Part shown: in pieces, positions 1 through 17,192 of the stretch
How the letters are laid out: each line of letters opens with the position of its first letter
How positions within the stretch are numbered: position 1 is the first letter of the stretch
Virus record (IMG/VR): IMGVR_UViG_3300045988_074841
Length of the DNA: 64,000 nucleotides
Reading direction: 5' to 3' (one strand)
Source: a virus
Position numbers and translations under genes: made by a program
Notes under the pieces: generated by a model
The model's input: the letters and a program-made list of their open reading frames with translations, nothing else
The model's database searches: none
Told to the model about the DNA's origin: nothing

Positions 1-3000
1 CCAACTCAGAATAACGATGAGTATGAAGTTCATCCTACAAGTAATGATAGCATTGCAAATCTTACAACTAATGAAGATTTGTTTGCTAATTCTAATATTG
101 CTACTCAAGATAACGTAGGTATAACTTCTTATCCTATTGTTAGACTTACTGGTAATAATTTTGAAGTTGTTAGTCAAGGTAAACTAGGAATTGAAGATGT
201 AAAAGAAGAAGAAACTTCACAGCAAACATCTTCTACGGGGGGTCTAGAACAAACTGAACCAGTAGAATCTCAAGCAGCAACTGAACCTATTCCTGAAGTA
301 GAAGAGACTACTCCTGAAGTTGAAGAACCTAAAGTTCCTGATTTTATGGGTAATGCTTCTGACACTAAAGTCATTAGAGATGTTATTACTGAATTAAAAA
401 CTACTCCTGATTTAGATTTAGATGCTAAAGCCAAGAGTATTCTTGATGATTATGTAGCTAAAGGATATAGTGAAACTGAAACTAAAAAACAAATAGATAG
501 TGCTTTTAGACGTATTCGTAAGAGACAAGAAAAACTTATGAATAAAGAAAGTACTGTTGCTTCTGTTTATTTTAGTAGTTTTGACCAAGAAGAACGTAAT
601 GCCAAATCTAAAAATGGTAAAGCTGTAGTATTTGATGATTCTTATAAAAAAGCTGTTAGTGACCTTCTTGATGTATACGCTAAAGATGCTGAACTTCCAC
701 AAATTAATGGTAAGTATTATGGTAATCTTATGAACCTTATGGATTATATTAAGTCTGCTTATGATGATTATTCTATGGCTGACTTTATGTTTAATAGTTT
801 GTCTGCTTATCTTAATACTCCTGAAGGTCAAGCTAAATTTAATATTACTGATGCCAATGATGTTAGTAATCCTGTTGCTTTCTTAAATAACTTCCATAAA
901 TCTCAAGCTGAAAGAGATGCTGCTCTTTCTAATGGAACTGTTCATCAAGTTAATATGAATCTTTCAGATTTTGGAACTGATGAATATATGAAAGAAAGTT
1001 ATGCTGAACAAGTTAAACTTAAAAATGGCGATAAACTTACTATAGAAAGAGTTACTACAAGTAAAGGTACTAGTCGTTTAGGTATCAAATCTAACGGTAA
1101 ACTTGTTGGTAGTATATCAATTCCTTCTACAGGAGAAAGAGGAGAATATGTTCAAAAGAATGATGGACTTATTTATCATATAGATAAAGCTGATGGTTCT
1201 AAAGATGGAGCACTTAAACAAGTTCTTAAAGATATAGCTAGAAGTAAAACTCCTGAGCATGAAAAACTTAATGAAATTATTCATAAAGCTGCTTTTGATA
1301 AGTTTAACGCTGAACAGCTAGTTAATGAATTTAAGAGTAATCCTATTGTTCAAGATATGGTTAAGAATCATATGATTAATTTTGATGGAACTGGTCCTGA
1401 ATATGAAGTTGCTCTTAATGGTCTTGCTAAACTTTGGAGATATAACTATAAAGTTCTTACCGAAGGAAGGGTTAATAAGTTTACTGGTGCAGTAGTTGCT
1501 AATTCTATTGATAAATGGTTTGATACTCTCCGTGAAAGTTATAATGAAACTAGTAAATTAGATAACAATCCAAACATTGATATTGTAGCTAGTGATGTAT
1601 TTGAAGGTGAGCTTATTCGTAGTAATGATGGTACTTTTAAAAGTGATGCTGAAACTTCTCTACCTATTCAATTAGCTATCGCTAAAGATACTAAGTTTGA
1701 AATTGCTGCCAAATCTACTACTGGTGAATTTATTAATGGTATTGGAAGTAATAAGTTTCTTGTTAGTGTTGGTCGAACTTATGTTACTGTTCCTCGTAGT
1801 AACGGTACTGTAGATATTGTAAATGCTTATCCAGTGAGTTGGACAGGTGCTACATATTATACAAAAGATGACAAACAACAACAAGTTGAGACAGGTAAAG
1901 ACTTTAAGCAGCTTCAAAATGCTATAATTACTCAAATTAAAGATAGACTTGCTTCTATTAATGATGGTGATTTTGCTGAAAATAGAAATAACTTTATTGA
2001 TTTTATTGATAATCTTCTTAATATCAATAAAAATCCTATTTTCCTTAGTAAAGAACTATCTGTATTTAGAACTGCAAATATTCTTGGAATTAACTTTGGT
2101 AATAAGAATAATCAACTTCTTTTCTATAGAGATAAGAATGGTGATGGTGTAGGTCAAATAATTAATAAAGTTGATGGTAAACCTAATTATATTTCTTACA
2201 ATAGTGATTTATCTGCTGTAAGCGATAGACTTATTGAAGGAATAAAAAGTCTCAATTTCAATATTAACTTTGCTGTTTTAAAGTCTGATAATAATCATAA
2301 TATTCCTCTTCAAGGTATTACTAGTAGAACTACTGACGGTAAGTTTAAAATTACTATTCCTGAATATAAAGGGAAAAATGGTGTAAATCTTACTTATGAT
2401 AGTTTTAAAGATTTTATTCAACAAAACAATCTTCTTAGAGTTAATATGGCTCAAGAAAACGGTAGTAATATTAGAAGAACTGCTATTAATAAACAAGGAG
2501 CTAATGCTAGATTTAGTTTTCAAGTAACAAATAAACAAGAAAGCCGCCCCGTAGAAGATGTTAGTGATAGTTATATTTCTAAAGCTGATGAAATTAAATC
2601 CATTGTAACATCTGATTCTACAGATAAAGGTTTTGAAGTTGCTAGTGCTCTTTTATTAGATGATACATCTAAAGAGAAACTAAATAGTATTAAAAGTGAT
2701 AGTTCTTTACGTAAACTTTTAGCTAAAGATATTATCTTTGACGAAGAATTTATGAGTAAAGAACATGCACAAGCTAATGCTGTTTGGAGCAAAACTAAAG
2801 GTGGTAAAGTTGTTATTGGTCAGAAATTCTTAGATATGATTAATAGTAAGAAACCTGGTGAAAAAGGTAGAGCTATTAGAACTTTGATGCACGAAAATCT
2901 TCATGGTTATATTGAAGATATGGCTAATAATAAACGTCATCCTAATGCGGTTGCTAATCTTAGAAATAGAATGCAAGATATTTATGATGATTTTGCTACT

Positions 3001-3708
3001 GCTATTAATCAAGATATTAATGATTTAAAAGCAGGAAATATTGATGAGATTAAACAACGTAGACATATTCAAGATAAAGCTACTCTTGAAAAGATTAGTG
3101 AGTGGCTTAATAATGTTAATACTTTTACTGCTGAAAGTTATGCTACTCGTGAGAATCCTCAAGATGCTCTAGAAGAATTTATTGTTGAATCTCTTACCAA
3201 TGTTGATTTAATGAATTATCTTAATCAAGTTGACGCTGATGGTGGAGTAGTTAAAGGCAATACTATTTGGCAGAAAATACTCAAGTTTATTGGTGACTTG
3301 TTTGGTATTAATATTCGTCCTAATAGTCTTCGTGCTAAACAAATGGAAGCTCTTGGTGAAATATTTAAGAATAATCAAGAAGCTGAAGTTAAAGCTGAAG
3401 AAAAAGAAGAAGAAGTTACTCAACCAACAACATCTTCTACGGGGCGTATAGAAGAAGTTGAAACAGAAACAGTTGCTGATAATACTAATAGTGTTATAGA
3501 TAATGATGATGTTGGAAATGCTAATGAGGTGTTTGATATTAAGGATGAAGATGTTGATGCTGATGATGAATATGATGCTGATGAAAGTACTAGTGAAGAA
3601 GTAGCTTTCAATTCATTCAACTCAGCAATCGAATCTCTTCCGATGTCGGAACGTGCCAAATTTGCCTCTCTCGTTAGCTCTGCTGCGATTTCGATGTCTT
3701 GCAAATAG
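1..3708 (+). CDS. large virion/cargo-like protein, 5-prime partial (>1235 aa), HExxH zincin-like motif (HENLH, nt 2890-2904) and strongly acidic C-terminal tail
   Basis: Reading frame of listed ORF 79..3708 stays open back to nt 1, so the TTG at 79 is not the real start and the gene continues upstream of the window. Coding composition is uniform. It lies directly upstream of the giant RNAP gene, as cargo genes do in crAss-like phages. Confidence 0.6.
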   Translation, partial: PTQNNDEYEVHPTSNDSIANLTTNEDLFANSNIATQDNVGITSYPIVRLTGNNFEVVSQGKLGIEDVKEEETSQQTSSTGGLEQTEPVESQAATEPIPEVEETTPEVEEPKVPDFMGNASDTKVIRDVITELKTTPDLDLDAKAKSILDDYVAKGYSETETKKQIDSAFRRIRKRQEKLMNKESTVASVYFSSFDQEERNAKSKNGKAVVFDDSYKKAVSDLLDVYAKDAELPQINGKYYGNLMNLMDYIKSAYDDYSMADFMFNSLSAYLNTPEGQAKFNITDANDVSNPVAFLNNFHKSQAERDAALSNGTVHQVNMNLSDFGTDEYMKESYAEQVKLKNGDKLTIERVTTSKGTSRLGIKSNGKLVGSISIPSTGERGEYVQKNDGLIYHIDKADGSKDGALKQVLKDIARSKTPEHEKLNEIIHKAAFDKFNAEQLVNEFKSNPIVQDMVKNHMINFDGTGPEYEVALNGLAKLWRYNYKVLTEGRVNKFTGAVVANSIDKWFDTLRESYNETSKLDNNPNIDIVASDVFEGELIRSNDGTFKSDAETSLPIQLAIAKDTKFEIAAKSTTGEFINGIGSNKFLVSVGRTYVTVPRSNGTVDIVNAYPVSWTGATYYTKDDKQQQVETGKDFKQLQNAIITQIKDRLASINDGDFAENRNNFIDFIDNLLNINKNPIFLSKELSVFRTANILGINFGNKNNQLLFYRDKNGDGVGQIINKVDGKPNYISYNSDLSAVSDRLIEGIKSLNFNINFAVLKSDNNHNIPLQGITSRTTDGKFKITIPEYKGKNGVNLTYDSFKDFIQQNNLLRVNMAQENGSNIRRTAINKQGANARFSFQVTNKQESRPVEDVSDSYISKADEIKSIVTSDSTDKGFEVASALLLDDTSKEKLNSIKSDSSLRKLLAKDIIFDEEFMSKEHAQANAVWSKTKGGKVVIGQKFLDMINSKKPGEKGRAIRTLMHENLHGYIEDMANNKRHPNAVANLRNRMQDIYDDFATAINQDINDLKAGNIDEIKQRRHIQDKATLEKISEWLNNVNTFTAESYATRENPQDALEEFIVESLTNVDLMNYLNQVDADGGVVKGNTIWQKILKFIGDLFGINIRPNSLRAKQMEALGEIFKNNQEAEVKAEEKEEEVTQPTTSSTGRIEEVETETVADNTNSVIDNDDVGNANEVFDIKDEDVDADDEYDADESTSEEVAFNSFNSAIESLPMSERAKFASLVSSAAISMSCK
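229..245 (+). repeat. GC-rich motif copy TCTTCTACGGGGGGTCT (forward), in-frame in cargo gene (TSSTGGLEQ)
   Basis: direct reading of sequence. Confidence 0.8.
2544..2560 (-). repeat. GC-rich motif copy CCGCCCCGTAGAAGATG (reverse), in-frame in cargo gene (SRPVEDV)
   Basis: direct reading of sequence. Confidence 0.8.
3431..3446 (+). repeat. GC-rich motif copy CATCTTCTACGGGGCG (forward), in-frame in cargo gene (TSSTGRIEE)
   Basis: direct reading of sequence. Confidence 0.8.
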
Positions 3709-3732
3709 ATTATTCATAGAATATATTTCAGG

Positions 3733-3774: not shown

Positions 3775-3800
3775 AAATAACTAATTTAATTAATAAAGTT

Positions 3801-6800
3801 ATGGCTTGTAATTTTAAAACAACAAGTGCTGGCACAAGCATTAAACGTAAGGTTGGAGCAAATAATGCTCGTTTTGTAGCGTTAATTAGTCTTATTAGTA
3901 ATCCTGAAACTGGAGGTTTTACTGATGAGTTTGTTAAGTATTATCAGAAAGTAAATCATACTGATAATATTCCTAGTGTTGATAATTCCGAAAGAGGAGT
4001 TATCGCTAAAACTGCTATCCGTTATTATAATAGTATTCACTTTGATGTTAATGCTCAAAGTACAGGTACTTATTATGATAAGGATGTAGATGCTTTCGGT
4101 TATAGTGATAGTCATGCAAAGGTATATGCTATTACTAGAGCAATTCCTAATATTATGCGTAGTATGTATGTTAGTGATATTAGAAGTGGAGAAATTGTTG
4201 ACAAGGATTCAATTCTTGGCGATTTAATTAAACGTACAAAAGTTAGGATAACTAAGGATGTTGCTGCTAATTATCTTAAAGCTATTGGTAAACCTGCAAC
4301 TAATGTTGAAGTTAATAAGATAGCTGATGCTCTTCTTAATAATAATGAAACTTATTATAAGAAAGATGAACTTATACTTGCTATAACTAAAGCTTTTGAC
4401 AAGAATGGTGATGTTCAAGTTCAAAATACTTTTGCTATTTATAAAGATATATTTAAAGATACTACTGGTAAAGATTTCTTTAATAGAGTTATTATTGCTG
4501 ACCCTATTATTGGTAATCTAAAATATAGCGATGAAACTGAATCTAGTCTTGCTGAAGCTTATGCTGAAGATTTTGATTCAGTAGATGATTCTTCTTATAA
4601 TAATAACGAAGATGAAGATGTACTTACTGTAGGTGATAGACAAGATAATACTTGGAATGATCATAGTGGTCTTGGTTCTAGTTATATGAAAGGTTTTGAC
4701 CTTGATATTCGTCTTAGTCTTTCTATGATACCTAAACTTACTAGTAATACTGTTGATACTAAGACTTTAAAGTCTGGTAAAGTAAAGGATGTTTACGATT
4801 ATGATAAAAACAATCCTACTGGTAATGTAGATTATATTGACGTAAAAGATATTATTAGTACTCTTAGTGCTAAGAAAGATGTTTCTAATCTTAATACTTT
4901 TATTGATAGTGTAAAAGAAGCTAGTAATATTCCTGGTATGGAAGGTCTTATTAAACTTTATAAAGACCTTACTTCTGATTTAGATTATGCTGCTCGTCTT
5001 TATACTCAATTCAAAACTGTAATTAACAAATATGAAACTCGTATTGCTGATGAGAATACAGCTATGAATAAGAGTAATAAGAATAGTAATGCTCAGCAAG
5101 TTCATGCTCTTAGTTTCCTTAATGATGCTAAGTTTACTCATATAAATACTGATTCTGATATTACCAATAAACTTGCTAATGAAGTAGATGAAACTATTGT
5201 AGAATATACTCAAGCTCTTGCTGCTGGCGATGAGTTTGCTTTAGACCAAGCTAAACTTTATAATACTATTGTTGATAGAATTGCTTCTCGCATTAAAGAT
5301 TATTATCCTAGTGCAGATAAAGCTTCTATTGATAATTATGTTCGTCTTGCTAATAATGGTGAAGTTGCTACCAATATGCGTTATCTTACTGATAGTCTCA
5401 GAAAGATAGCTAAAGCTTCTGATGCTACTACTTCTCAGTATACTGAAAATCGTGATGCTATTAGCGGTATTAACAAAGAAATTAGGAAACTTCAAACTAA
5501 AATTGACGCTCTCAACGAAGCTGGGGAACATAAAGGTATAGATAAAATCAATGAAGAAATAGATAAACTTGTTAGTCAAAGAGATAATATTCGATTTAGT
5601 GATTATCGTTCTCAAGATAGTATTACTCAGAGTATTGCTTTATCTGATAAACTTTATCCTTATTCTTCTGTTAAAGTTGAACTTAATTCTCGTAATGGTT
5701 TGGGTAATCTTCAATCTGATATTATCAATAGTTCCATGATTACTTATCTTCTTAAAGTACTCAATAGTCCTAAGACTACTACTGATGAATTAGGTAATAC
5801 CGCTCCTGAGTCTCTTGTTAACTTTGCTAAGTTTAAGTTTAAGAACAATCAATATAATCTTAGTAATATTCTTATTGAGACTAGAGAAAATGGTAAGATT
5901 GTAAATTATGGTCTCTTTTATTATGATGCTGACAAACAGAAATATGGTGTTACTAATTATGCTTCTGGTTTACTTAACGTTGCATTATTTAATGGAGCTG
6001 TAAAAACTGATGAAGGTACAGGTATTACTTATGCTCAAATGAGTAAAGGCGATTATGTTTATACTGCTTTTGCTAATTATTTTAATAGCGATAAAAATAT
6101 TGATGCTGATAGAGTAACTAATAGCATTCCTCTTGCTAATTACTTTATGAGAACTCCTTCTGATGCTCCTAAAACATTTGTAGTTCGTGCTCCACGTTAT
6201 CATATAACTAAGAGTAATCCAATTAGAACTGTAACAAATGCTGCTGATGTAGATAATTATATTAAGAATTATGTTGCAGAGCATATTGCTAGTATGTCTG
6301 AAGCTGCATTTAATCAAGCTAATCCTAGAGCTAAATTTATTCAACTTGAAGATAATCGTAGTGATCGTGCTCAAATTACTAGAGATTTAACTGATAATAA
6401 TATTACTCGTTCTGTATATGAGAATGAGATTATTCGTAATGATGGTAAAACTGCAACTATTGGTTATCAATTTACTGATGAAGAAGGTAATGTAAATAAA
6501 TATATTATTACCGGTTCTATTCGCCACGTAAAAGGTATGAATAAATTTGTTATTGAGAATGGTAAAGCTACTATTCTTGATAATAATGAAATGAGAGATA
6601 ATCTTCGTCCTATGATATATGATAAGTATCGTAAACAAGCTTATCGTAACGGTAGAATTGGTGATGTTCAAGTTGATTATAAAGTTAATAGAGAACATCC
6701 TATTTATAAACAATTTAGAAAGATATTTAATCAAGAGTTGACTAATATGGCTGAGGCTATTAATATGATATTCTTGACTGGCGATGATGGTGTTATTCAG

Positions 6801-9800
6801 CGTGAAGCTGATGGTAAACCTAAGTTTAATCCTAATAATGCTTTTGGATTAGATAAAGAATCTGCTCGTAGACTTTATGCTAATTATCAAACTAAAAAAG
6901 ATAAATATCTTGATTCTAATTATGGTTTAGTTGGAAATATGTTCCATAGTGATAAGTTCACTATTACTGATTATAAGACTGGTAAAATTCGTAATTATGG
7001 TCAAGAACTTCTTGATGATTATTTTGATAGTCTGTATAATGGTAGTAAAGGTGGCTTTATTCATTTTGGTTATGAGAATGGTAAGATTAAACTTAATCAT
7101 ACTAAAGACCAAGCTAAAGCTATTGATAACAAAATAGCAGAATTTATTAGTGATTATATTTATAGTTCTGCTATACGTATGGATGAATTTAAAAATCTTG
7201 ATGTAGCTGGACTTATTAATGATGATAATGTTGCTGACTTTGCTCTTAATTATCGTCTTGCTTATAATTATTTTGATGATTTATTTGAAGGTGATGATAA
7301 GTTTTATAAGTCTTCTCAAGACTTCTTGAAACGTGCTAAGGAAGGTCAAGCTAGTGGTACTCCTTATAGTACTTTCAATATTTATCAAGATGAGAATATG
7401 ATGTTGACAGACTTAAAGAAGATGAGTTATCTTAATAGTCAAGCTATTCAAGATAAACTTAATAGTCTTGGTCTTCATGTTACTCAACGTCCTGGTTTTG
7501 TTGGTATTACTATTAAGAATACTGTAAGAACTTCTCATGAAGCTTCTCAAAATGGTCCTGTTGTTCATGAACTTGCTCGTGTTTATATGAAACATGACCC
7601 TGAACTTACAGAAGATGAAGCTATTGCTAAAGCAAATAAGCATATGGAAGGTTATCAAAATACTACTGTAAACGATGCTCAATCTTATATTACTTTTGAA
7701 GAATGGATTCGTCGTGTTGCAGGTAGAGGTCAACTTAATAAATATATGCCTCTTATTGAGCGTATTATGGATAGAAGTAAACCTCTTAGAGTAGATGATA
7801 TTAAAACTTTTGTTCAAGTACAAAAGAACTTCTATTATGATATGACTTATAATGATAAGATTAATACTTATGCTCCTCGTCAAATTAAAAATGCTGAACT
7901 TGTTCTTGTACCTAGATTTATTGAAGGTACTGACCTTGAGAAAGTATACAATCTTATGAAAGACCATGGTATTGACCAACTTAATACAGAAGAGACTTCT
8001 AAAGCTGGTAAAGCTGGAGTTCTTACTTTATTTGATGAAGAAACTGGTGAAGTTACTGATACTCATATTCAAGATTTTAATAACCATGTAGAAGATTATA
8101 AAGAGACTTATTCTTATAATTTCCTTTATACTCAGCAAGAAACTCCTCAACACATGAATGCAGAAAATAAAGCTGCTATTCAAATTATGAAGAAGATTGT
8201 TGATAATATTCCTGATACTGGAACTATTGGAGAAGTTAAGAAAGAGTTTTTTAAACTTTATGTTGCTAATATTAAAGATAGTTTCAATAGTCTTGTTAAG
8301 GAACTTAATATTCCTACAAATGAAGATGGTTCTATTAAACTCGATGCTAATGGAAATATTGAAGGACTTGATATGAAACTGTTCTTCAATAAGCTTCGTA
8401 AAGAATGTCTTCGTCAAGGTCTTGATAGTAATATTCTAGAGTTCTTTACTCTTAATGAAGATAGTCCTTATACTGAACTTGGAAGAGCTAATACTGTTAT
8501 GCCTACATATATGACTAATATGATGAGTAAAGCTCAGAATGTTTGTCAGTCTATGTTTAATAATGCTATTACTCGTCAAAAGTTGCCTGGTTTTCATGCT
8601 GCTCAGGTAACTAATGTAGGTTATTCAAAGCATCTTCGTTATCATCCTGATGGTGGACGTTACATTGAAGTTCTTCTTCCTAAGAGCAACTTTGGTTTTG
8701 CTAAAAATGAAGATGGTACTTATAAAGAACCTGATGAAATTAGAGACAAAGATGGAAATCTTGTAGGTGGACTTCTTTATCAACTTCAAAGAGCTAAACT
8801 TGATACAATTATTGGTTATCGTATTCCTACTGAAGGTAAGCAATCTATATGTGCTATGAAAGTAGTTGGATTTACAGATGATGCTCAAGGTTCAACTATA
8901 GTTGTTCCTGATGATTGGGTTGCTCAAACTGGTTCTGACTTTGATATTGATTCTGTATATGGTATTCAACATAATACATATATAGATAAAGATGGAGATA
9001 TTCAAAAAGTTGCTTATAAAGAATCATTTGGTAAATTATATGACGATTATGTAAAAGAACAACTTAATGATGAAGCTAAAGATAAACTAGAAGAAGCTGT
9101 TAAAAATGGAGTTAACGAATCTACTGCTTTAGCTAATGCTGCACAAGAGGGTGGACTTCTTAGTCGTGAAGAATTTAGTAAAGCTAATAGTATTGAAGAA
9201 AAGAATAGTCGTCAAGCTCGTAACAATCGTATACTTGATGATATGCTTCGTATTCTTCAATCTGATGAAGCTTTTGAAGAGAATACTGGTCAATCTCAAT
9301 TTGAAGATATTATCAATGCACGTGATAATATTATGAATGATGTAGTTAAGAGTGTTCGTAATGGTCGTAGTTGTTATGATTTTATTGACCAAGCTGAATA
9401 TCAAGAAGATGTTATGAGTGGTGCTAAACTTAAAGCATTTAGTGTTACTCGTGATACCTTTGTTTCTATTTGCAACAAAGTTCAACCAACTATTGATAAA
9501 AATTATGCTATTAGTGCTAGATATAAAGCTACTCCAAAACAAGCTGAGGTTTTAGCTAAACGTTTTGGAGAAGATAATGTTATTTACAAAGATGGTTATG
9601 TTACAATTAGTCATACTATGATTGGTTGGTCACACGATAATCATAATGTAGATGATGCTATTCTTACTGCTTATAGTTCTGAGACTACAGCTCATATTCT
9701 TGATGCTGTAAAAAAAGGTGCTGTACCTAATGTAAATGAGTTTACTTTTGCAGTATATAAAACTTTCCCTGATGTAGGTAGTAATTATAAGACTGGTGTT

Positions 9801-12800
9801 GCATTTATGATGCACCCTGCTGTAACTCGTATAGTTAATGCTTATAATAAAGGTAAATCTGTTTATAGTGAAGATTCTGCTCAACCTATAGTTGATGCTC
9901 TTAAAGAAGTAGCTGAAGAACTCGATGTTGATAGTAGTTCTTTATATTCAGGTAAAATGGTAGTTGAAGCTATTAATGATAAACTTGGTACAAATTATAG
10001 TTTTATTAAAAACAACAATATTGTTCTTGATGAAGAGCAATTAGCTAGTGATGTAAAGAATGCAAACAATGTTTCTCTTGCTCGTGAAGTAGAGATTCTT
10101 ATGGCTTACAATGATATTAATCGTTTAGCTGATGTAATTCAGAAAACTGTAAGAGTTTGTAATCCTGATAAGTTTGGAGCTAAACAAACTATATTTGCTA
10201 CTAATGAAGTATTTGAAACTATTAAAGATATAATTAATAGTAAACAAGCTAAAGTACTTAGTAAGAATGATATTCCTTTCCTTGAAAGTATTTATCCTGG
10301 ACTTATTAAAGATGGTGTTGTAGATAAAGATAATTATGTAAAAGATACTCATGAATCTGCTTATCCTTCTCTTAATGCTTTCTTAAAGTATGCTTCAGTT
10401 ACTAGTACTGTAGTTAATAGCATGCTTTTTGAAACTCAAAATTCTGCTTTTGTAACTACTATTAAAGCTCTTAGTAAAATGCTTCCTACTCCTCGTAAAC
10501 TTACTGAGAAAGAATATAATGATTATGAGAAGTATGTTATTGGTGCTGCTTATAATAATGCTGACGGAATTAGATTAGGTTATACTATCAACTCTTCTAC
10601 GGGGCGTCTTGAATCAACTAAAACAAGTGATTTACAAGAGCGTCTTCGTATTTATGGATTTAGTGGTAGTCCAGTATTTCATTTTGATGTTGAAGATATT
10701 ACTGAACCAACTCAAGATGAAATTGATGCTTGGTCTAAACTTACTCCTGCTCAAAAAGTTGCTTGGTTACAAAGTAAAGCAGAAGATGGTGGTATATTTA
10801 GTAAACTTAAAGTTGACCTTCAAGATAATTATCGTGTTGGTAATAAAGAATGTGCTGCTCAATCTATTCGTTTTAATGATGATAATGTAGATACTGAAAC
10901 TGCTTACAATCTTTTTGAAACTGCTACTAAGAGTCAGAATCCTCTTGTTAAACTTGCAGCTATAGACCTTATTAAATATGCGTTTGTAGTTGAAGGTTTC
11001 AAGATGCGTCGTAATGGTATTAATAAGATTATTAAGAATAGTACTCTTCGTGATGATACTTTGTTTGCTAATCAAGATGGAGAACCTACTAGTCTTCTTA
11101 GTCAAATTGATGCTAATTTTAAGCATATTACTTATGATGATTATCGTGATGATTATTTAAGAAGTCATTCTGATAATGGTATGGTTCCAAAAAGAACTGT
11201 AAAGAAGAAAAGAGTAGGTAAAATTTGGGTTAATGAACTTAGTGCTCCTGATGGAGTTATAACTCTTAATGTTCCTTCTCGTAGAAATGATATTACAGAA
11301 GCAGATATTAATGATGAATTTGCTGCTACTAAAACTATTGCAGAAGAGACGGAAATCCGCCCCGTAGAAGATGTAGTAGATAATAAACTTCAAGTTGTTC
11401 AAGATAATACTACTGCTCCAGATGATACTAAACTTGCTGTTAAGTATGGTATTTATAATGCTTGGACTGATAGAGTTAATCCTTATGTAAAACTTACTTT
11501 TAAGAATCGTGGTGTTAATACTACGAATCTTTATAAGACTGTTCGTCATGGTGATATAATATTTGCTTATCCTGTTAGTATGCTTGAGGAAAACGAACAT
11601 GGTATTGTTTCTGTTAATCAAGCTAATAATACTCTTTATAGTGAGATGTATTATAGAACTATTATTGATAATAAACTTCAAGGTAATCAACTTACTAAAG
11701 AAGAAGCAGATAAACTTCGTAAAGAATACGCCAATGAACGAGCTATTTCTTCTAAAAGTAGAGTTAATACTGGTTTTGATATTAATAAAGATAGAACTAC
11801 TGGCGATATAGGTGGTGCTCGTGATGCTTATAGTAAAATTATTAATCTTATTAAGAATGATGCTAAAGGTATTCAAATTATAAACAATAGGTATCTTTAT
11901 AATCGTGTTAGTGAAGGATTTGGTAATTTCCAAATTATTCATGATGTAATTGATGGTAATGAAGTTACTAAGAAAATTGCTTTTGCTAAAGAAACAAAAG
12001 TAATATTTGATTCTGAAGGTAAAGTAATTCCTTATCCTGTTAAAGTTATTCAGATTATTCCTTCTACTAATGATAAAGAAAGTACATCTGTTGAATATAA
12101 TTTTGACATGTTTACTGATATTAATCGTAGAGCACATGAAGGTGATGTCAATGCTTATCGTGAAGTTCAGTTTATGAATAATAATGGTTTTGAGAATGTT
12201 AGTACTGATTATACAAATATGTCTCCTAAACTTTATGAAGCTATTGATAGATTCACTAGTGCTACAGCTAAGAAACTTATCAGTGATGCTGACCAATTCT
12301 ATAAAAAAGAAGATGGAACTTATGCTTCTATATTTGCTCCTGAAACTATAGAAATGATTCGTAATAATCCTAGTGAGCAAAGACGTTTTCAAAAGTTACT
12401 TCTTGATACAGATAGTATTATTAATAAATATGGTACTATATTTGATGTTGTAGTTGACGAAAATGAGAATCCTGAAGTAATTGATTTTATTAATCATATT
12501 AAGAAAACTATTGGAGATTTACGTAACAAACTTAATCTTAGTACTCTTAATGAAAGATTTGCTAGAGAAGTTGTTGCTAAATGGTCTAATGACCCTAATA
12601 TTCAAAATGGTTTAGTTGATATTTGTAATGGTTATCATGCTGTTACTTGGTGTGATGCTTGGATTGGAGATTTACAAGATACTGGTAATAGTCTTATTCA
12701 AAATATTAGCAAACATATAGTTGATGATATTAGTGCTAAAGATATGCAAGCTGCTAAAGATGCTCGTGAATTTGAAAAAGCTATTAAAGCTCTAGGTCAC

Positions 12801-15800
12801 ATAGATTGGGATAAACTTGTTGATAAGAACGGTAAACTTATTAGAGATTATACTGACAAATTTGTTGAAGATTTAGATACTCTTAGAAATAAAGTAGATG
12901 AAGCTCGTAAAGATGTCATTAATAATCCTATGGCTTATCTTAAAGCTAAGCATGAATATGATGCTTTCAAGCTTGCTCATCTTAATCAACAATTTAAGGA
13001 TGAGTATTATAAAGCTATGTATGATAATGATGATTACATGCTTAATACTGCTCCTACTATTTTTGCTGAATATACAAAACTTAGAGAGCAAATTAGAAAT
13101 ATTAATCGTCTTCGTATTAGTGGTGTTCTTAGTCCTGAAAATGAAGAAGAATATCGTAAACTTAGAAGAAGTATTAATCAACTTGAGTCTACAATAAATT
13201 TTGATGATGGTACTGAGAAACCTATTTATGATGAAACTAATCCTATTCCAGGTACTAAAGGTTTCGATGAAGAAGGTAAACCTATAATTGTAGATAAGGC
13301 TAAATATGATGAAGCTGTATTAAACTCTCAAGGAGCTGCTATGAAACTTAATCAATATCTCAAACGCAAACGTGATATTAATGAAGAATATAATGATACT
13401 CAAGTTAAGGATAGTTTTGAAGAAGAACTTGATAAGAGACTTGATATTATTAAGCGAGCTGAGAAACGTGATGCTTTTGGTAATAAACAAGTTTCTGATG
13501 AAGTTCTTGCTAATGACGAAAAGTATCAAAGAGCTAAAGAATGGCTTGAGCAAAATGCTACTTGGCATGTAGACCCTAAAGTTAGTGATGAAATTGCTGT
13601 AGCTTATGGTGTTCTTTCTAAAGGTAGAGTACAAAAGAATAATCAAATAACTTATAAGGCTAAACTTATCAAAATTAAACTTGCTAATGGTGAGAAAGTT
13701 TATGATAGTAAAGGTCGTATTCGTGGCGATATATTTACTGAAGAAGAACAAGAAGCTATAAGAAAAGATGAAGCTGGTCGTTATAATAATACTATTTATT
13801 CTGCTGGTAATGAACAAATATTAATTAATAATGCTCCTGAACAAAAGCAAGCTCTTCCTGCTGTAGTACAAAGAATGCTCACTTCTAATAGCAAAGAAGG
13901 TAAAGCTAACGTTGAATATCTTAAATTAGTTAATGAAATTAATGAAATTCTTCGTCCTTATTATGATACTACTAAGAAAGAAGTTAATACTATAACTGAT
14001 AGACATCAAATTAGTATTGAAGAACTTCATAAACTTGCTGATTTGTATGAGAAACTTCGTAATACAAAAAAGACTATAGTTAATGAAGATATACCTGGTA
14101 ATGGTTCTGCTGTTGGTAGTTTTATTCGTAAGTTTATGCATACTGAATATAGTTCTAAGTTTGATATTGAATACAGTAAAGCTAAAACTATTGGTGGTGA
14201 ATATCTTAAAGCTTGGGAAGATGCTAATATGGAATATGATTTTGAATATGATGAAAAAGGTCATATTGTTAAAGACTCAGATGGTAATTATGTATATGAT
14301 AAATCAGTTCGTCTTCCTAATCGTTTTCTTTATGGTACTCTTACTCTTAAAGATGAGTTCTATACTGGTATGAAGAATCAGAAAGTAGCTAAAGACTTGC
14401 GTAAAGAAGCAGAGATTAAAACTAAAGCTCTTGCTACTATTAACGAATATCTTGAAACTACTACAACTCCTTATTATAGTGATGCTATGGCTGAGGCTAG
14501 AGCTAAAGGTAAAGAAGAGTTTGATAAGTGGTTTACTCGTAATCATGTATGGAATGTTTATACTCATAAGTTTGACCCAATAGGTATTTGGCAAAAGACT
14601 AGTATTAAACCTAATTACGCTAATGGTACTTGGGCTGCTAATTATAATCAGTTAGATATTGTTCCTAAAGAAGAATATCGTAATCCTGATTATAAAGAGA
14701 ATACTACTCAAGCTGAGAATTTTAAACGTGGTATAAACGATGAAAAATATGTTAACAATGTAACTCTTAGTGACAATGAAAAACAAGCTAAGAAACTTAT
14801 TGAAACAACATTAGATAAGATTGTTAGAGATAAAACTAGTCGTCGTATTATTAGTCAAGGTTTTATTCCTATTACTGCAAAAGAAGCTGACCATGACTTT
14901 AAATGGTTTGGTAAACAAATAGCTGAATTTGCTGGTTGGAATGCTAATATTAGCTCTGTTGGTAAGAATAGTCTTCATGCTAATATGAATTATTCTACTG
15001 ATAAAACTCCAGTGCTTCCTATGATTGGTAGAGAATTTACTAATAAAAATAGTGAAGACATTAATAAAATTAAAGCTGCTGAGCCAAAGAGAGATCAATA
15101 TACTACTGATGAAGAGTATAATAAAGCTATGACTGAACATAAAGCTAGACTTGATGCTGCTGAAAAGAATAATAAAGCAATACATCAATCTCTTGTTAAT
15201 AGAGATTTTGTTTCTAGTATTAGTCAGTTTATTAGACTTGCTGGTCATCAAAATGCTGTTCAAGATAATAAGTATCTCTTCTATTATGGTCAAAATATGA
15301 TTAAAGCTACTCCTGTACTTGATGATAATATAGGTTTTAGTAATCTCAGAAAAGATATTAATAGAAGTACTACTGATGTTACTCGTTATGCTGAAAAGAC
15401 TTATGATGAAAGACTTTATGGTCAGTTTACTAATTGGGGTAATAGACTTATCTACGATAGATATAAACTTCCTAATAATAAACTTACCAAAGCTGCTAAT
15501 ATTGCACAAAGTCTTACTAGTGCTAAATTTATGATGTTAAATATTACTGGTGCTATTGGTAACGTTACTGTTGGTCGTAGTGGTATTTTTGCTGAACATA
15601 TAGCTAAAGCTTATTTTAGTACTTCTGCTTGGAATAAAGCTAAAACTATGTGGTATGGTGCTTCTTTATCTTTCCTAAGAGGAATGACTAGAGAAGATAG
15701 TACTAGTCTTGCTGATGCTATTGTTAAATTTATGAATGTTGTAGATTTCGATGAAGTACTTGGTAGACCTAGTGGTAGTTTTAAAGCTAGTGATGCCATT

Positions 15801-17174
15801 AATCGTCTTAGAAACCTTATGTATTCTCCTAATGCTATGGGTGAACATCACATGCAGAATAGTGCTATGTTTGCTATGATGTTTGAGAATAGAATTGTTC
15901 CTGTAGATGATTATCGAAATAAAGGTAGACTTCCTTATCAAGCTATGACTTGGTCTCAATATAAAGTTGCTTCTCACGAAGAAGCTATGAGACAACTTAT
16001 TGCTGGTACTCCTCTTGCTGCTCAATTTGAGAAATTTGTAAATGATATAAAGTCTGACCCAAATCAACTTAAAGAATATGCTAGAGGAAGAAGAGATTTA
16101 GCTAATGAATTTAAGAACATTTTCCTTAACAATAAACAAAGTAAAGATTTTGTTGCTAAACGTAAGGAACTTGAAGCTAAAGCTAAGAAACAATTTGAAG
16201 CTAATCCTACTCTTATGGAACAGCTTGATTTGGTTGATGGTAGACTAGGTTTTAAAGATGGTTCTCTTATGGAACAACTTTCTAAACAAAGTACTAATGG
16301 AGAAATAAATGATGCTTATGCTCTTCTTGGAGAGTTCAAAGGTAAAGTTATTGCTGTTAATAAAGAAATACATGGTGTATATGATAGACTTGGTGCTGCT
16401 CAACTTGAAAAATATTGGTGGGGTAGTCTTGTTATGCAATATCATAAACATATATATCCAGGTATTCTTAAACATTGGAGAAGAAAAGGTTATTTTAATG
16501 AACAAACAGGCGATAGTCGTGTAGGTTGTGGTCCTGCTCTTATGGATTTCCTTACAATGCCTATTCGTCAATATAATGAAAGACATAAACTTTTAGATAA
16601 TAAACAGCTTGAAGCACTTGAAGGTACTCAAAATCTTTTTGCTGCTTATGTAAACTTTGCTGAGAATATTCGAGTTAATTGGGAAGCATTACCTGAATAT
16701 CAGAAAGCTGCTATTCGTAGAACAGCTGGTGATGTATTTGGTGCTTTATCTTCTATTATGGTTGCTATCGGTACTAATATAGCTTGGGATGATAAGGATA
16801 AAGATAAAATGCTTCTTCCTAATCTTATGCTTTATAGTGCAGACAAACTTGCAACTGAAAGTATGATGTATAATCCAATATTCCTTCCAAACAATGCTAA
16901 AGATCTTTGGAGTTCTCCTATTGCAATGATGAATATGCCTAATGATATTATCAATAGTCTTAATCTTGTAGCAAATGCTATGTTTGATGATGAATTTGAT
17001 TATAATTATACTACTGGTCGTTACAAAGGTGAGAATAAATTTAAAGTTAAACTTATGAGACAAGTTCCTATTTATAGAGCTTATAATAATCTTGCTACTA
17101 TTGATAAGAGTAATAGTTATTATCATTATGGTAAAAATATACTTGGATTTGTTCCTACATCATTTGATAAATAA
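3801..17174 (+). CDS. giant virion-packaged RNA polymerase-like protein (crAss-like vRNAP), 4457 aa
   Basis: Uninterrupted 13.4-kb ORF. Aspartate triad DFDID at aa 1713-1717 (nt 8937-8951) resembles the DxDxD metal-binding motif of crAss-like phage virion RNAP (phi14:2 gp66 type double-psi beta-barrel). All antisense ORFs inside it are AT-rich artefacts. Confidence 0.6.
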   Translation: MACNFKTTSAGTSIKRKVGANNARFVALISLISNPETGGFTDEFVKYYQKVNHTDNIPSVDNSERGVIAKTAIRYYNSIHFDVNAQSTGTYYDKDVDAFGYSDSHAKVYAITRAIPNIMRSMYVSDIRSGEIVDKDSILGDLIKRTKVRITKDVAANYLKAIGKPATNVEVNKIADALLNNNETYYKKDELILAITKAFDKNGDVQVQNTFAIYKDIFKDTTGKDFFNRVIIADPIIGNLKYSDETESSLAEAYAEDFDSVDDSSYNNNEDEDVLTVGDRQDNTWNDHSGLGSSYMKGFDLDIRLSLSMIPKLTSNTVDTKTLKSGKVKDVYDYDKNNPTGNVDYIDVKDIISTLSAKKDVSNLNTFIDSVKEASNIPGMEGLIKLYKDLTSDLDYAARLYTQFKTVINKYETRIADENTAMNKSNKNSNAQQVHALSFLNDAKFTHINTDSDITNKLANEVDETIVEYTQALAAGDEFALDQAKLYNTIVDRIASRIKDYYPSADKASIDNYVRLANNGEVATNMRYLTDSLRKIAKASDATTSQYTENRDAISGINKEIRKLQTKIDALNEAGEHKGIDKINEEIDKLVSQRDNIRFSDYRSQDSITQSIALSDKLYPYSSVKVELNSRNGLGNLQSDIINSSMITYLLKVLNSPKTTTDELGNTAPESLVNFAKFKFKNNQYNLSNILIETRENGKIVNYGLFYYDADKQKYGVTNYASGLLNVALFNGAVKTDEGTGITYAQMSKGDYVYTAFANYFNSDKNIDADRVTNSIPLANYFMRTPSDAPKTFVVRAPRYHITKSNPIRTVTNAADVDNYIKNYVAEHIASMSEAAFNQANPRAKFIQLEDNRSDRAQITRDLTDNNITRSVYENEIIRNDGKTATIGYQFTDEEGNVNKYIITGSIRHVKGMNKFVIENGKATILDNNEMRDNLRPMIYDKYRKQAYRNGRIGDVQVDYKVNREHPIYKQFRKIFNQELTNMAEAINMIFLTGDDGVIQREADGKPKFNPNNAFGLDKESARRLYANYQTKKDKYLDSNYGLVGNMFHSDKFTITDYKTGKIRNYGQELLDDYFDSLYNGSKGGFIHFGYENGKIKLNHTKDQAKAIDNKIAEFISDYIYSSAIRMDEFKNLDVAGLINDDNVADFALNYRLAYNYFDDLFEGDDKFYKSSQDFLKRAKEGQASGTPYSTFNIYQDENMMLTDLKKMSYLNSQAIQDKLNSLGLHVTQRPGFVGITIKNTVRTSHEASQNGPVVHELARVYMKHDPELTEDEAIAKANKHMEGYQNTTVNDAQSYITFEEWIRRVAGRGQLNKYMPLIERIMDRSKPLRVDDIKTFVQVQKNFYYDMTYNDKINTYAPRQIKNAELVLVPRFIEGTDLEKVYNLMKDHGIDQLNTEETSKAGKAGVLTLFDEETGEVTDTHIQDFNNHVEDYKETYSYNFLYTQQETPQHMNAENKAAIQIMKKIVDNIPDTGTIGEVKKEFFKLYVANIKDSFNSLVKELNIPTNEDGSIKLDANGNIEGLDMKLFFNKLRKECLRQGLDSNILEFFTLNEDSPYTELGRANTVMPTYMTNMMSKAQNVCQSMFNNAITRQKLPGFHAAQVTNVGYSKHLRYHPDGGRYIEVLLPKSNFGFAKNEDGTYKEPDEIRDKDGNLVGGLLYQLQRAKLDTIIGYRIPTEGKQSICAMKVVGFTDDAQGSTIVVPDDWVAQTGSDFDIDSVYGIQHNTYIDKDGDIQKVAYKESFGKLYDDYVKEQLNDEAKDKLEEAVKNGVNESTALANAAQEGGLLSREEFSKANSIEEKNSRQARNNRILDDMLRILQSDEAFEENTGQSQFEDIINARDNIMNDVVKSVRNGRSCYDFIDQAEYQEDVMSGAKLKAFSVTRDTFVSICNKVQPTIDKNYAISARYKATPKQAEVLAKRFGEDNVIYKDGYVTISHTMIGWSHDNHNVDDAILTAYSSETTAHILDAVKKGAVPNVNEFTFAVYKTFPDVGSNYKTGVAFMMHPAVTRIVNAYNKGKSVYSEDSAQPIVDALKEVAEELDVDSSSLYSGKMVVEAINDKLGTNYSFIKNNNIVLDEEQLASDVKNANNVSLAREVEILMAYNDINRLADVIQKTVRVCNPDKFGAKQTIFATNEVFETIKDIINSKQAKVLSKNDIPFLESIYPGLIKDGVVDKDNYVKDTHESAYPSLNAFLKYASVTSTVVNSMLFETQNSAFVTTIKALSKMLPTPRKLTEKEYNDYEKYVIGAAYNNADGIRLGYTINSSTGRLESTKTSDLQERLRIYGFSGSPVFHFDVEDITEPTQDEIDAWSKLTPAQKVAWLQSKAEDGGIFSKLKVDLQDNYRVGNKECAAQSIRFNDDNVDTETAYNLFETATKSQNPLVKLAAIDLIKYAFVVEGFKMRRNGINKIIKNSTLRDDTLFANQDGEPTSLLSQIDANFKHITYDDYRDDYLRSHSDNGMVPKRTVKKKRVGKIWVNELSAPDGVITLNVPSRRNDITEADINDEFAATKTIAEETEIRPVEDVVDNKLQVVQDNTTAPDDTKLAVKYGIYNAWTDRVNPYVKLTFKNRGVNTTNLYKTVRHGDIIFAYPVSMLEENEHGIVSVNQANNTLYSEMYYRTIIDNKLQGNQLTKEEADKLRKEYANERAISSKSRVNTGFDINKDRTTGDIGGARDAYSKIINLIKNDAKGIQIINNRYLYNRVSEGFGNFQIIHDVIDGNEVTKKIAFAKETKVIFDSEGKVIPYPVKVIQIIPSTNDKESTSVEYNFDMFTDINRRAHEGDVNAYREVQFMNNNGFENVSTDYTNMSPKLYEAIDRFTSATAKKLISDADQFYKKEDGTYASIFAPETIEMIRNNPSEQRRFQKLLLDTDSIINKYGTIFDVVVDENENPEVIDFINHIKKTIGDLRNKLNLSTLNERFAREVVAKWSNDPNIQNGLVDICNGYHAVTWCDAWIGDLQDTGNSLIQNISKHIVDDISAKDMQAAKDAREFEKAIKALGHIDWDKLVDKNGKLIRDYTDKFVEDLDTLRNKVDEARKDVINNPMAYLKAKHEYDAFKLAHLNQQFKDEYYKAMYDNDDYMLNTAPTIFAEYTKLREQIRNINRLRISGVLSPENEEEYRKLRRSINQLESTINFDDGTEKPIYDETNPIPGTKGFDEEGKPIIVDKAKYDEAVLNSQGAAMKLNQYLKRKRDINEEYNDTQVKDSFEEELDKRLDIIKRAEKRDAFGNKQVSDEVLANDEKYQRAKEWLEQNATWHVDPKVSDEIAVAYGVLSKGRVQKNNQITYKAKLIKIKLANGEKVYDSKGRIRGDIFTEEEQEAIRKDEAGRYNNTIYSAGNEQILINNAPEQKQALPAVVQRMLTSNSKEGKANVEYLKLVNEINEILRPYYDTTKKEVNTITDRHQISIEELHKLADLYEKLRNTKKTIVNEDIPGNGSAVGSFIRKFMHTEYSSKFDIEYSKAKTIGGEYLKAWEDANMEYDFEYDEKGHIVKDSDGNYVYDKSVRLPNRFLYGTLTLKDEFYTGMKNQKVAKDLRKEAEIKTKALATINEYLETTTTPYYSDAMAEARAKGKEEFDKWFTRNHVWNVYTHKFDPIGIWQKTSIKPNYANGTWAANYNQLDIVPKEEYRNPDYKENTTQAENFKRGINDEKYVNNVTLSDNEKQAKKLIETTLDKIVRDKTSRRIISQGFIPITAKEADHDFKWFGKQIAEFAGWNANISSVGKNSLHANMNYSTDKTPVLPMIGREFTNKNSEDINKIKAAEPKRDQYTTDEEYNKAMTEHKARLDAAEKNNKAIHQSLVNRDFVSSISQFIRLAGHQNAVQDNKYLFYYGQNMIKATPVLDDNIGFSNLRKDINRSTTDVTRYAEKTYDERLYGQFTNWGNRLIYDRYKLPNNKLTKAANIAQSLTSAKFMMLNITGAIGNVTVGRSGIFAEHIAKAYFSTSAWNKAKTMWYGASLSFLRGMTREDSTSLADAIVKFMNVVDFDEVLGRPSGSFKASDAINRLRNLMYSPNAMGEHHMQNSAMFAMMFENRIVPVDDYRNKGRLPYQAMTWSQYKVASHEEAMRQLIAGTPLAAQFEKFVNDIKSDPNQLKEYARGRRDLANEFKNIFLNNKQSKDFVAKRKELEAKAKKQFEANPTLMEQLDLVDGRLGFKDGSLMEQLSKQSTNGEINDAYALLGEFKGKVIAVNKEIHGVYDRLGAAQLEKYWWGSLVMQYHKHIYPGILKHWRRKGYFNEQTGDSRVGCGPALMDFLTMPIRQYNERHKLLDNKQLEALEGTQNLFAAYVNFAENIRVNWEALPEYQKAAIRRTAGDVFGALSSIMVAIGTNIAWDDKDKDKMLLPNLMLYSADKLATESMMYNPIFLPNNAKDLWSSPIAMMNMPNDIINSLNLVANAMFDDEFDYNYTTGRYKGENKFKVKLMRQVPIYRAYNNLATIDKSNSYYHYGKNILGFVPTSFDK
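10592..10606 (+). repeat. GC-rich motif copy CTCTTCTACGGGGCG (forward), in-frame in vRNAP (NSSTGRLES)
   Basis: direct reading of sequence. Confidence 0.8.
11357..11373 (-). repeat. GC-rich motif copy CCGCCCCGTAGAAGATG (reverse), in-frame in vRNAP (IRPVEDV)
   Basis: direct reading of sequence. Confidence 0.8.
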
Positions 17175-17176: not shown

Positions 17177-17192
17177 CGCCCCGTAAAAGAGT
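17177..17192 (-). repeat. GC-rich motif variant CCGCCCCGTAAAAGAG (reverse), 3 nt after vRNAP stop codon
   Basis: direct reading of sequence. Confidence 0.7.

Follow-up and report, generated by a model that had tools for sequence, protein, structure and literature searches.

Several described systems rely on short sequence signals placed along a genome. The DNA uptake sequences (DUS) of Neisseria and the uptake signal sequences (USS) of Haemophilus are residents of competent bacteria and occur in many copies in both orientations. Chi sites, of 5-8 nt, are G-rich, strand-specific and host-bound; where the ends of the DNA vary, both orientations are required. Among phages, the stoperators of the cluster A mycobacteriophages (the L5 gp71 sites) comprise ~30 asymmetric sites of 13-17 bp that are mostly intergenic and share one orientation relative to transcription; the promoters of T7, T3 and SP6 form a contiguous block of ~20 bp ending in a G-run, present in roughly 17-30 copies per genome and always pointing with the genes; and the nick sets of T5 and phiKMV comprise 4-15 sites on one strand, with GC-rich consensus sequences in otherwise AT-richer genomes. 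Strand-specific starts of synthesis on both strands are provided either by dispersed primase sites of 3-5 nt (5'-GTC-3' in T7) or by the long and specific single-strand initiation (ssi) signals of the G4 type and of RSF1010 (ssiA/ssiB), which are hairpins found once or twice per replicon. In the current work a repeated motif is described in a 64,000-nt stretch of the IMG/VR virus record IMGVR_UViG_3300045988_074841 (this whole stretch being referred to as the window), where it is most conspicuous as two identical 27-nt blocks on opposite strands. These blocks are probably copies of a dispersed, asymmetric, conserved and strand-specific DNA signal of replication or recombination, and not mobile inserts, protein-level motifs or simple signals for transcription.

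The window belongs to a crAss-like phage and is collinear, in reverse orientation, with the uncultured phage cr8_1 (MT774384; Crassvirales, Intestiviridae, Obtuvirinae), at ~65-95% nucleotide identity. An earlier reading of the window from its letters (the original prediction) had reported that positions 226-252 of the + strand and 38641-38667 of the - strand are identical over 27 nt and encode the same nonapeptide, TSSTGGLEQ, in two otherwise unrelated proteins. Both statements were confirmed: ACATCTTCTACGGGGGGTCTAGAACAA is exact at both positions and in frame in both genes, a repeat search returns the pair as a 27-nt inverted repeat with 100% complementarity, and zero matches to the 27-mer occurred in 100 dinucleotide-preserving shuffles. 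The first copy lies within an open reading frame (ORF) that continues beyond the window start and terminates at 3708, representing the C-terminal 1235 amino acids (aa) of a homologue of cr8_1 gp_19918 and crAssphage gp45, annotated as ‘RNAP-associated protein fused to zincin protease’ (RNAP, RNA polymerase); the designation of this ORF as a cargo gene is reasonable by homology and synteny. The second copy is situated in ORF 38281..38850(-), which corresponds by synteny and ~80% nucleotide identity to a cr8_1 gene annotated as uracil-DNA glycosylase (UDG), Pfam returning no match for this UDG-like ORF. Within the cargo ORF, a 71-nt stretch consisting of an acidic linker and the motif is present at 192-262 and again, 75% identical and 3204 nt apart, at 3396-3466, and this repeated linker module therefore brackets a block of ~1070 aa.

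The 27-nt pair represents a small part of a larger family. A 12-nt core, TCTTCTACGGGG, has 13 exact and 5 near-exact copies in the window, where 1.1 are expected; allowing up to two mismatches, it is found at 20 places (again 1.1 expected), 18 of which share ACGGGG and its flanks. The remaining two places were discarded, as 31580-31591 is part of a canonical terminator hairpin and 8084-8095 is without the ACGGGG core. The motif has the asymmetric architecture (C)AT – pyrimidine hexamer – ACGGGG – SGG – CT(A)GA, the window logo reading C.A.CA.A-TCTTCT-ACGGGG-CGG-CT.GA with information extending from ~-16 to +8 around ACGGGG. The 27-nt identity corresponds to a long form of this consensus (…GGTCTAGAACAA), which in cr8_1 reads GGTCTAGAGCAAC. 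The 27-nt block, previously taken as the longest version of the motif, is therefore the best-matching pair within an 18-member family, the copies of which had been undercounted in the original prediction. Likewise, the strings GGCGGCTCTAG (27841) and GGCGGCTAGA (45051), which had been quoted as further copies flanked by an XbaI-like palindrome, are real and represent the 3' halves of copies with cores at 27831-27842 and 45041-45052; the TCTAGA ‘palindrome’ simply belongs to the 3' extension of the family, CT(A)GA(R). The + strand carries ten of the 18 copies and the - strand eight; relative to the genes around them, 11 run in the sense and seven in the antisense direction, and six or seven are intergenic.

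The manner in which the motif is accommodated by genes indicates that it is the nucleotide sequence, and not the peptide, that is maintained. In-gene copies use stop-free frames only, the remaining frames containing TAG. Sense copies are read as SSTG[GR][LIV]E (7), IFYGA (1) or FLLRGG-stop (1), with an additional IFYGA reading for the copy at 45041 in a + strand ORF of doubtful status, and antisense copies are in every case read as RPVED (3). Both central codons are rare in the window, ACG accounting for 1.5% of Thr codons and GGG for 1.5% of Gly codons; the 31 tabulated window ORFs contain six in-frame ACG-GGG dicodons, each of them within a motif copy, and one more sense copy (the seventh, at 53155) belongs to an ORF outside this table. 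In relatives the peptide shifts from TSSTGG to TPFTGG or TPLTGG and the motif architecture is unchanged. The intergenic and antisense copies, the fixed synonymous positions and the peptide variation in relatives bear out the earlier claim that the sameness resides in the DNA and does not reflect protein convergence, and for the same reasons a protein-level motif, such as a protease site, was ruled out. The copies are under nucleotide-level purifying selection at fixed orthologous positions.

The age of the sites was assessed with relatives retrieved by an IMG/VR search with the UDG protein, which returned 46 loci at 42-96% identity. All 21 UDG homologues examined (42-96% aa identity) contain the motif segment, without length change in the protein alignment, and all 21 have at the same codons the DNA sequence ...YCTYYTACGGGGG..., i.e. 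YCTYYT-ACGGGGG. Across the 46 loci, each considered as a 20-kb region, a sense site in the UDG gene is accompanied by an antisense site in the helicase gene ~3 kb downstream and a sense site in the primase gene ~8 kb downstream, positions and orientations being conserved. Of the 28 IMG/VR loci with the 18-mer ACGGGGGGTCTAGAACAA, 20 have it in the UDG gene context and 8 in that of the cargo gene, with diverged flanks and an identical motif; the cargo-gene copy accordingly appears as an island of identity amid diverged flanks in 8 related contigs. In the cr8_1 cargo homologue a copy (SISFTGGSSS) is present at the equivalent place, ~65 aa before the alignable region, within an unalignable low-complexity linker. 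In close relatives the pyrimidine hexamer toggles between C and T (YCTYYT), with a genome-wide preference, and ACGGGG is essentially invariant.

The recent duplicative spread of a discrete element, proposed in the original prediction, is not borne out by these data: both sites are old and orthologous, the UDG site in 21/21 homologues and the cargo site in the 8 contigs and cr8_1. The nonapeptide had been envisaged as an insert relative to homologues, and no such insert was seen in the UDG alignment; nor were target-site duplications or terminal inverted repeats found. In the single presence/absence comparison, the cr8_1 site at 74607-74618, which is without counterpart in the window, ~25 nt replace ~21 nt with conserved flanks and no target duplication. 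It had also been reasoned that universal presence of the peptide in homologues, with divergent synonymous sites, would imply conservation at the protein level. Presence in homologues is universal, but the synonymous sites are conserved, and this combination therefore points to a selected cis-acting nucleotide signal. A minority of sites, located in the giant gene, differ between the window and cr8_1. Where cr8_1 and its close relatives have one intergenic motif copy, the window has an imperfect palindrome instead (39399-39460), this non-motif allele being common to all window-like relatives. A role at recombination junctions was also considered and set aside as doubtful: the boundaries of the high-scoring segment pairs between the window and cr8_1 do not coincide systematically with copies; a breakpoint scan of 16 aligned relatives gave peaks near the UDG and primase sites, and elsewhere as well, with none at the helicase site.

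The signal is common to the crAss-like family Intestiviridae, with ~30 copies per ~93-kb genome, or one per 3.1-4.2 kb at uniform density, and its sequence varies by lineage. It reads ACATA-CCTTTT-ACGGGG-SGG-CTAGAG (ACATACCTTTTACGGGGSGGCTAGAG) in cr8_1, with 29 copies; CTC-CTYT-AYGGGG-GAA (CTCCTYTAYGGGGGAA) in crAss002 (Churivirinae; host B. xylanisolvens), with 28 copies; TCCAT-CCTCY-ACGGGG-RGT (TCCATCCTCYACGGGGRGT) in the prototype crAssphage, Carjivirus communis (BK010471), with 31 copies; and TCCTYT-AC(A)GGGG, also written TCCTYTAC(A)GGGG, in ‘Rudgehvirus jaberico’ (host B. cellulosilyticus), with 12 copies in the first 50 kb. An analogous motif of different sequence is present in crAss001 (MH675552; Steigviridae; host B. 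intestinalis), which is devoid of ACGGGG altogether and carries CTTCTGGAG in 27 exact copies against 1.7 expected under a third-order Markov model, on both strands, with even same-strand spacing and with close pairs in opposite orientation only. No strongly over-represented 9-mer was found in the marine phage phi14:2, and no obvious motif of this kind in the Suoliviridae phage cr1_1. A scan of 185,579 species genomes with the extended 17-mer gave 42 single hits against ~70 expected by chance, mostly in unrelated GC-rich taxa; a match in a Segatella isolate was discarded as not phage-like. Considering that B. intestinalis and B. cellulosilyticus, which we take to be sister species, are hosts of phages carrying unrelated motifs, and that the 17-mer occurs at chance level, the signal belongs to the phage lineage and not to the host.

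Two further elements were noted beside these variants. Some copies in crAssphage and crAss002, intergenic for the most part, have tandem GCGRA pentamers (GCGGAGCGAAGCG) at a distance of 11-24 nt on their downstream side, located at 6045, 28190-28200, 44936-44946 and 95889 in crAssphage and at 4225-4230, 47861 and 86194-86204 in crAss002. These tandem repeats, which the window lineage is without, contain GCGAAGC, the sequence of a very stable DNA mini-hairpin. The Crevaviridae phage cr127_1 has a different element of ~45 nt (..TATAATGGC-CACAAGGGCG-AGAGGTGTTCCGAAAT..), in 8 copies in 50 kb, which forms opposite-oriented pairs (examples being 11357(+), 11919(-), 28705(-), 28872(+), 42047(-) and 42233(+)), one copy being inside the UDG gene.

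The arrangement of the copies follows the strand they occupy and not the direction of the genes. The ratio of sense to antisense copies is 11:7 in the window, 14:15 in cr8_1, 15:13 in crAss002, 19:12 in crAssphage and 13:14 in crAss001, giving 72 sense and 61 antisense copies over the five genomes (46% antisense), i.e. the direction of transcription is ignored. By strand, copies number +10/-8 in the window, +14/-15 in cr8_1, +16/-12 in crAss002 and +13/-18 in crAssphage. Copies on the same strand are kept apart, the minimum same-strand gap, evaluated by 10,000-20,000 random placements, being 3191 nt in the window (P 0.0001), 1517 nt in cr8_1 (P 0.0006), 2007 nt in crAss002 (P 0.0001), 2078 nt in crAssphage (P <0.0001), 1537 nt in crAss001 (P 0.0023) and 2759 nt in jaberico (P 0.0185). 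In these six genomes the coefficient of variation of same-strand gaps is 0.35-0.61, with ~1 expected under random placement. Adjacent copies less than 1.3 kb apart form 32 pairs, every one of them with opposite orientations, and the same holds for 56/56 distinct close pairs in further IMG/VR loci (2.14 Mb), none being same-oriented. Because close neighbours are never same-oriented, orientation matters, and an orientation-blind role in duplex DNA, such as bending or the binding of a nucleoid protein, is excluded. Copies are also enriched between genes: 13 of the 29 copies of cr8_1 lie in the 7.6% of the genome that is non-coding (P=6e-8), and 8 of the 28 copies of crAss002 in the corresponding 7.4% (P=7e-4). 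Several spacers contain tight inverted doublets 27-90 nt apart, arranged convergently or divergently, and single intergenic copies have no bias to the sense orientation.

From this geometry and conservation, we infer that the signal is read strand-specifically by a replication or recombination machinery which acts on each strand genome-wide, and not by the transcription apparatus. The mechanism that we favour, as the first of several candidates although less likely than not, is that discontinuous DNA synthesis would start, or its machinery be loaded, at these sites. The purine tract of the template strand would be recognised by a primase or primosome, which would then synthesise a GC-rich primer, 5'-ACGGGGSGGCU, that would be unusually stable in a genome of 30% GC; A(C/U)GGGG with 3-5 further G/C-rich bases would approximate the length of a bacterial-type primer, and the pyrimidine tract, which tolerates Y/Y changes, would suit a flank that is recognised and not copied. 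Each strand would require its own series of sites, and redundant close sites on the same strand would not be maintained. Both strands are indeed served along their length, as primase or single-strand initiation sites are, with even same-strand spacing and opposite-only close pairs in the six genomes. Our second choice, of nearly equal merit and to be regarded as a lesser possibility, is a phage-specific, Chi-like ‘self’ mark that would switch off a phage helicase-nuclease on phage DNA, and the absence of the long motif from host DNA would permit discrimination between self and non-self. A RecD/PIF1-like helicase is found by Pfam at window positions 39778..41250, and PD-(D/E)XK nucleases are among the annotated genes of these phages. 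It is conceivable, although we would not expect it with any assurance, that the Intestiviridae (and crAss001 independently, with another sequence) punctuate each strand every ~6-7 kb with a lineage-variable signal read by the phage's own DNA-tracking machinery, acting either as an obligatory start at which lagging-strand primers are made or as a ‘Chi’ of the phage's own, by which phage DNA is spared while host DNA is destroyed.

A number of points weigh against such a replication or recombination signal. The analysis returned no reader protein or RNA. DnaG-type primases read ~3 nt, as opposed to the 12-25 nt conserved here. Phage phi14:2 has a primase and a DnaB helicase and yet is without any such motif, and none is obvious in cr1_1, so that the conserved replication genes of the Crassvirales do not require the signal. 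As many sites are orthologous between the window and cr8_1, the spacing statistics of these two are non-independent, the other genomes being largely independent. Some intergenic sense copies of cr8_1 are located 22-35 nt upstream of start codons, and a divergent pair in crAssphage, 95750(-)/95870(+), lies between the divergent genes gp87 and gp88, both arrangements fitting a role in transcription, which a subset of copies may have. Finally, even per-strand spacing is also a property of the Haemophilus uptake sequences, the function of which is not strand-specific, so that spacing alone is no proof of strand-specific reading.

With these points in mind, the explanations that compete with a replication or recombination signal can be weighed. 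A role of the whole family in transcription is rather unlikely. The motif, with ~17 conserved nt followed by GGGG, has the shape of a T7-type promoter with a start in the G-run, and it might equally be regarded as a factor-dependent site of pausing, termination or antitermination; in addition to the cr8_1 and crAssphage copies cited above, many in-gene sense copies are placed 258-373 nt upstream of the next gene start, and GC-rich tandem GCGRA repeats or hairpins follow several intergenic copies in crAssphage and crAss002, in the manner of stabilising 5' leaders. Against this stand the 46% of copies that are antisense, including deeply conserved ones in the helicase and giant virion genes, which would have to produce regulatory or primer RNAs or block antisense transcription, and the lack of sense bias among single intergenic copies. 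Moreover, no single-subunit RNA polymerase was found by Pfam in the 10 ORFs scanned or in the annotations of cr8_1, crAss002 and crAssphage, a search that was not exhaustive, and in phi14:2 early transcripts are without a common upstream motif and middle and late promoters are of the host sigma type (10.1101/2020.03.07.982082). An intrinsic terminator was rejected, as no consistent hairpin is formed (RNAfold mean z -0.39 over the 18 copies, with heterogeneous structures) and none of the 19 canonical hairpin-plus-T sites in window positions 17-37 kb overlaps a copy; hairpins are possible only from inverted doublets, apart from a mini-hairpin, CUCC-ACGG-GGAG, possible in crAssphage only. A tag for self-recognition on double-stranded DNA, used in multi-site packaging initiation or another discrimination between phage and host DNA, is less plausible still. 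The anatomy is that of DUS/USS, with an extended consensus around a core of 10-12 nt, copies in either orientation, frame restriction in genes, inverted intergenic pairs and even spacing, and the motif is absent from bacterial genomes in the 17-mer scan, yet a reader indifferent to orientation would not leave close neighbours opposite-oriented in 32/32 and 56/56 cases. Headful packaging is, furthermore, one-directional and normally uses a single pac site, and the terminal repeats of crAss001, a phage with the same motif anatomy, are reportedly fixed (PMC10136315).

Site-specific single-strand interruptions (nicks) in virion DNA, comparable to those of T5 and phiKMV, would account for a long, conserved, asymmetric consensus that is dispersed over the genome and acts per strand; as both strands carry equal numbers of copies, in contrast to the one-strand nick sets known, and opposite-strand copies lie 27-70 nt apart in several AT-rich spacers, where nicks would tend to break the duplex, we hold this to be improbable. 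There is very little to be expected from a host Chi site, i.e. a recognition sequence of Bacteroidales RecBCD/AddAB accumulated to protect linear phage DNA. The motif is G-rich and strand-specific, is present in both orientations at a roughly Chi-like density, and is absent from the marine phage phi14:2, the host of which belongs to a different order; Chi sites, however, have 5-8 nt as against the 12-25 nt conserved here, the motifs of crAss001 and jaberico are unrelated in spite of their presumed sister hosts, none of the 185,579 species genomes, scanned with the extended 17-mer, shows enrichment of the extended motif, and the phages carry genes annotated as Gam-like nuclease inhibitors. The least credible of the candidates, with a negligible chance, is a small mobile element, of the miniature inverted-repeat transposable element (MITE) or REPIN type or a homing cassette, that was recently copied into genes. 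Many near-identical copies, inverted doublets 36-90 nt apart reminiscent of REPINs, and a genome-wide preference in the pyrimidine tract (TCTTCT in the window, CCTTTT in cr8_1) that could suggest homogenisation are set against sites that are orthologous across deep divergence without length change, edges at which information fades gradually with no target-site duplications or terminal repeats, a presence/absence site that is a replacement and no clean insertion, and an even same-strand spacing unexpected from transposition. An ORF of 57 aa annotated as ‘transposase’ is present in cr8_1.

The individual copies in the window are distributed as follows, coordinates referring to the core unless indicated. 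The cargo ORF holds the long-form copy at 226..252 (+; core 229-240), which is sense and in frame, its TSSTGGLEQ falling in an acidic linker, an antisense copy at 2547..2558 (-), where the + strand codons read RPVEDV, and a sense copy at 3433..3444 (+; TSSTGRIEE). The giant ORF 3801..17174 contains a sense copy at 10593..10604 (+; NSSTGRLES) and an antisense copy at 11360..11371 (-; RPVEDV), as well as a possible degenerate copy, CCTTTTACGTGG, at 6524..6535 (-), approximately midway in the long - strand gap from 2558 to 11371, which may be decaying or weak. The giant ORF is followed, 5 nt after its stop codon, by an intergenic copy, TCTTTTACGGGG, at 17179..17190 (-), which is orthologous to cr8_1 3394(+). 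The intergenic copy at 20310..20321 (+), orthologous to cr8_1 113-124(-), forms a convergent inverted pair with TCCTTTACGGGG at 20370..20381 (-), which is likewise intergenic, just past the stop of ORF 20387..20671. Further along, CCTTCTACGGGG at 24654..24665 (-) is sense in ORF 24384..25034 (IPSTGRVES), the identical variant being present at cr8_1 88032, and the copy at 27831..27842 (+), orthologous to cr8_1 86700(-), is intergenic between ORFs 26079..27551 and 27862..28218 and antisense to both.

The copy at 30697..30708 (-) is sense in the primase-like ORF 30308..31534, where it uses the second open frame (IFYGADG) and is kept in all relatives, and TCTTTTACGGGG recurs at 35504..35515 (+), antisense in the helicase ORF 34606..36021 (RPVKEC), with site and orientation kept in all relatives. 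The UDG-like ORF holds the long-form copy at 38641..38667 (-; core 38653-38664), which is sense, reads TSSTGGLEQ and precedes the start of the DNA polymerase gene by 373 nt. CCTTTTACGGGG at 42705..42716 (-), orthologous to cr8_1 71506, is sense at the C-terminal end of ORF 42698..43042 (FLLRGG*), and the copy at 45041..45052 (+) lies between the - strand ORFs 44397..44819 and 45330..45827, antisense to this block. The intergenic copy at 49943..49954 (+), orthologous to cr8_1 62575, begins 15 nt after ORF 49392..49928 has ended, precedes the start codon at 50023 by 69 nt and has small hairpins following it. The copy at 53155..53166 (+) is sense in ORF 53071..53427 (TSSTGRIEQ), 258 nt upstream of the terminase start, with orthologous sites in cr8_1 and crAss002, and that at 58920..58931 (+), orthologous to cr8_1 53215, is sense in ORF 58629..59993 (NSSTGGLEV). 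Pfam analysis of motif-bearing ORFs was largely uninformative, returning a RecD/PIF1-like helicase and a weak PolB hit only.

Other features of the window were recorded in the course of this work. Hairpin-plus-T terminators number 19 in positions 17000-36999, against 4.4 in shuffles, examples being 17488-17518(+), 20093-20065(-), 31584-31549(-) and 32689-32665(-). The search for tRNA-like or Rfam families returned only one tRNA-Gln (anticodon TTG), at 17332-17403, which as in cr8_1 occupies the convergent junction immediately beyond the giant ORF. An AT-rich element, ATTTTATTTAATATTTTAA(A/T)TT, is present at 39373-39404, 43865-43896 and 58267-58298; the first two adjoin the start codons of the - strand genes 38982..39374 and 43447..43866, respectively, and the element may be a promoter or leader. 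AT-rich low-complexity repeats (TTATTATTATT…) occupy 46751-49277, between the - and + strand gene blocks, this being the part of the window with the lowest GC content. The 9-mer TGCTCGTGA, with 8 occurrences against 0.5 expected (at positions such as 10079, 11816, 12761, 61032 and 61197), was rejected as an element, as it is always on the coding strand and represents an Ala-Arg-Asp codon effect. Some close relatives (4 loci, at ~position 11800) have an insertion of ~1.09 kb in the DNA polymerase gene that is not in the window and is probably an intron or a homing-endonuclease cassette.

No description of the motif or of its function was found in the searchable literature, including searches with literal sequence strings and the texts of crAss papers, which figure-only logos would escape. 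What is new is a signal of ~20 nt that occurs ~30 times per genome, has a strict strand geometry and constrains the coding of essential genes, those of UDG, helicase, primase and virion proteins. If the proposed reading is true, a signal that punctuates strands would be a way for a virus to mark its own genome throughout that has not been described before, and would account for the odd peptides (SSTGG/RLE) that unrelated proteins share in the most abundant phages of the human gut. Without this explanation, such peptides might be taken wrongly for domains, inserts or mobile elements. The motif is a lineage-diagnostic sequence signature and a warning against synonymous recoding of its sites in engineered phages, and with three cultured carriers (crAss002, crAss001 and jaberico) the proposal is testable.

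When compared with the systems outlined at the beginning, the crAss motif fails at least one defining feature of each. With DUS/USS it shares the short asymmetric core with extended consensus, the many copies in both orientations, the frame-limited in-gene copies that give rise to recurrent peptides, the inverted intergenic pairs and a spacing more even than chance; it differs in residing in a phage genome with no uptake machinery involved, in its sites being orthologous over deep divergence, and in the strictly opposite orientation of close neighbours. Chi sites are alike in being G-rich, strand-specific and of comparable density, whereas the crAss motif is longer (12-25 nt), phage-lineage-specific and, in its extended form, not found in host genomes. 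Stoperators are similar in number, asymmetry and the existence of lineage variants, but the crAss motif has an orientation ratio of 54:46 and more than half of its copies in genes, these phages are not known to be temperate, and the analysis returned no repressor. T7/T3/SP6 promoters resemble it in block structure, copy number and lineage variants and differ in orientation, nearly half of the crAss copies pointing against the genes. The primase and ssi signals offer strand-specific starts on both strands and a cryptic recognised part beside a copied part, and differ in being either far shorter or else structured and few; we know of no precedent for an unstructured site of 12-25 nt repeated ~15 times per strand. 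The nick consensus of T5 and phiKMV is likewise conserved, fairly long, asymmetric and dispersed, whereas the crAss motif occupies both strands, with some opposite copies tens of bases apart. The closest analogues of the crAss motif are the uptake sequences in anatomy, Chi sites and the primase/ssi signals in logic, and stoperators and T7-type promoters in phage context.

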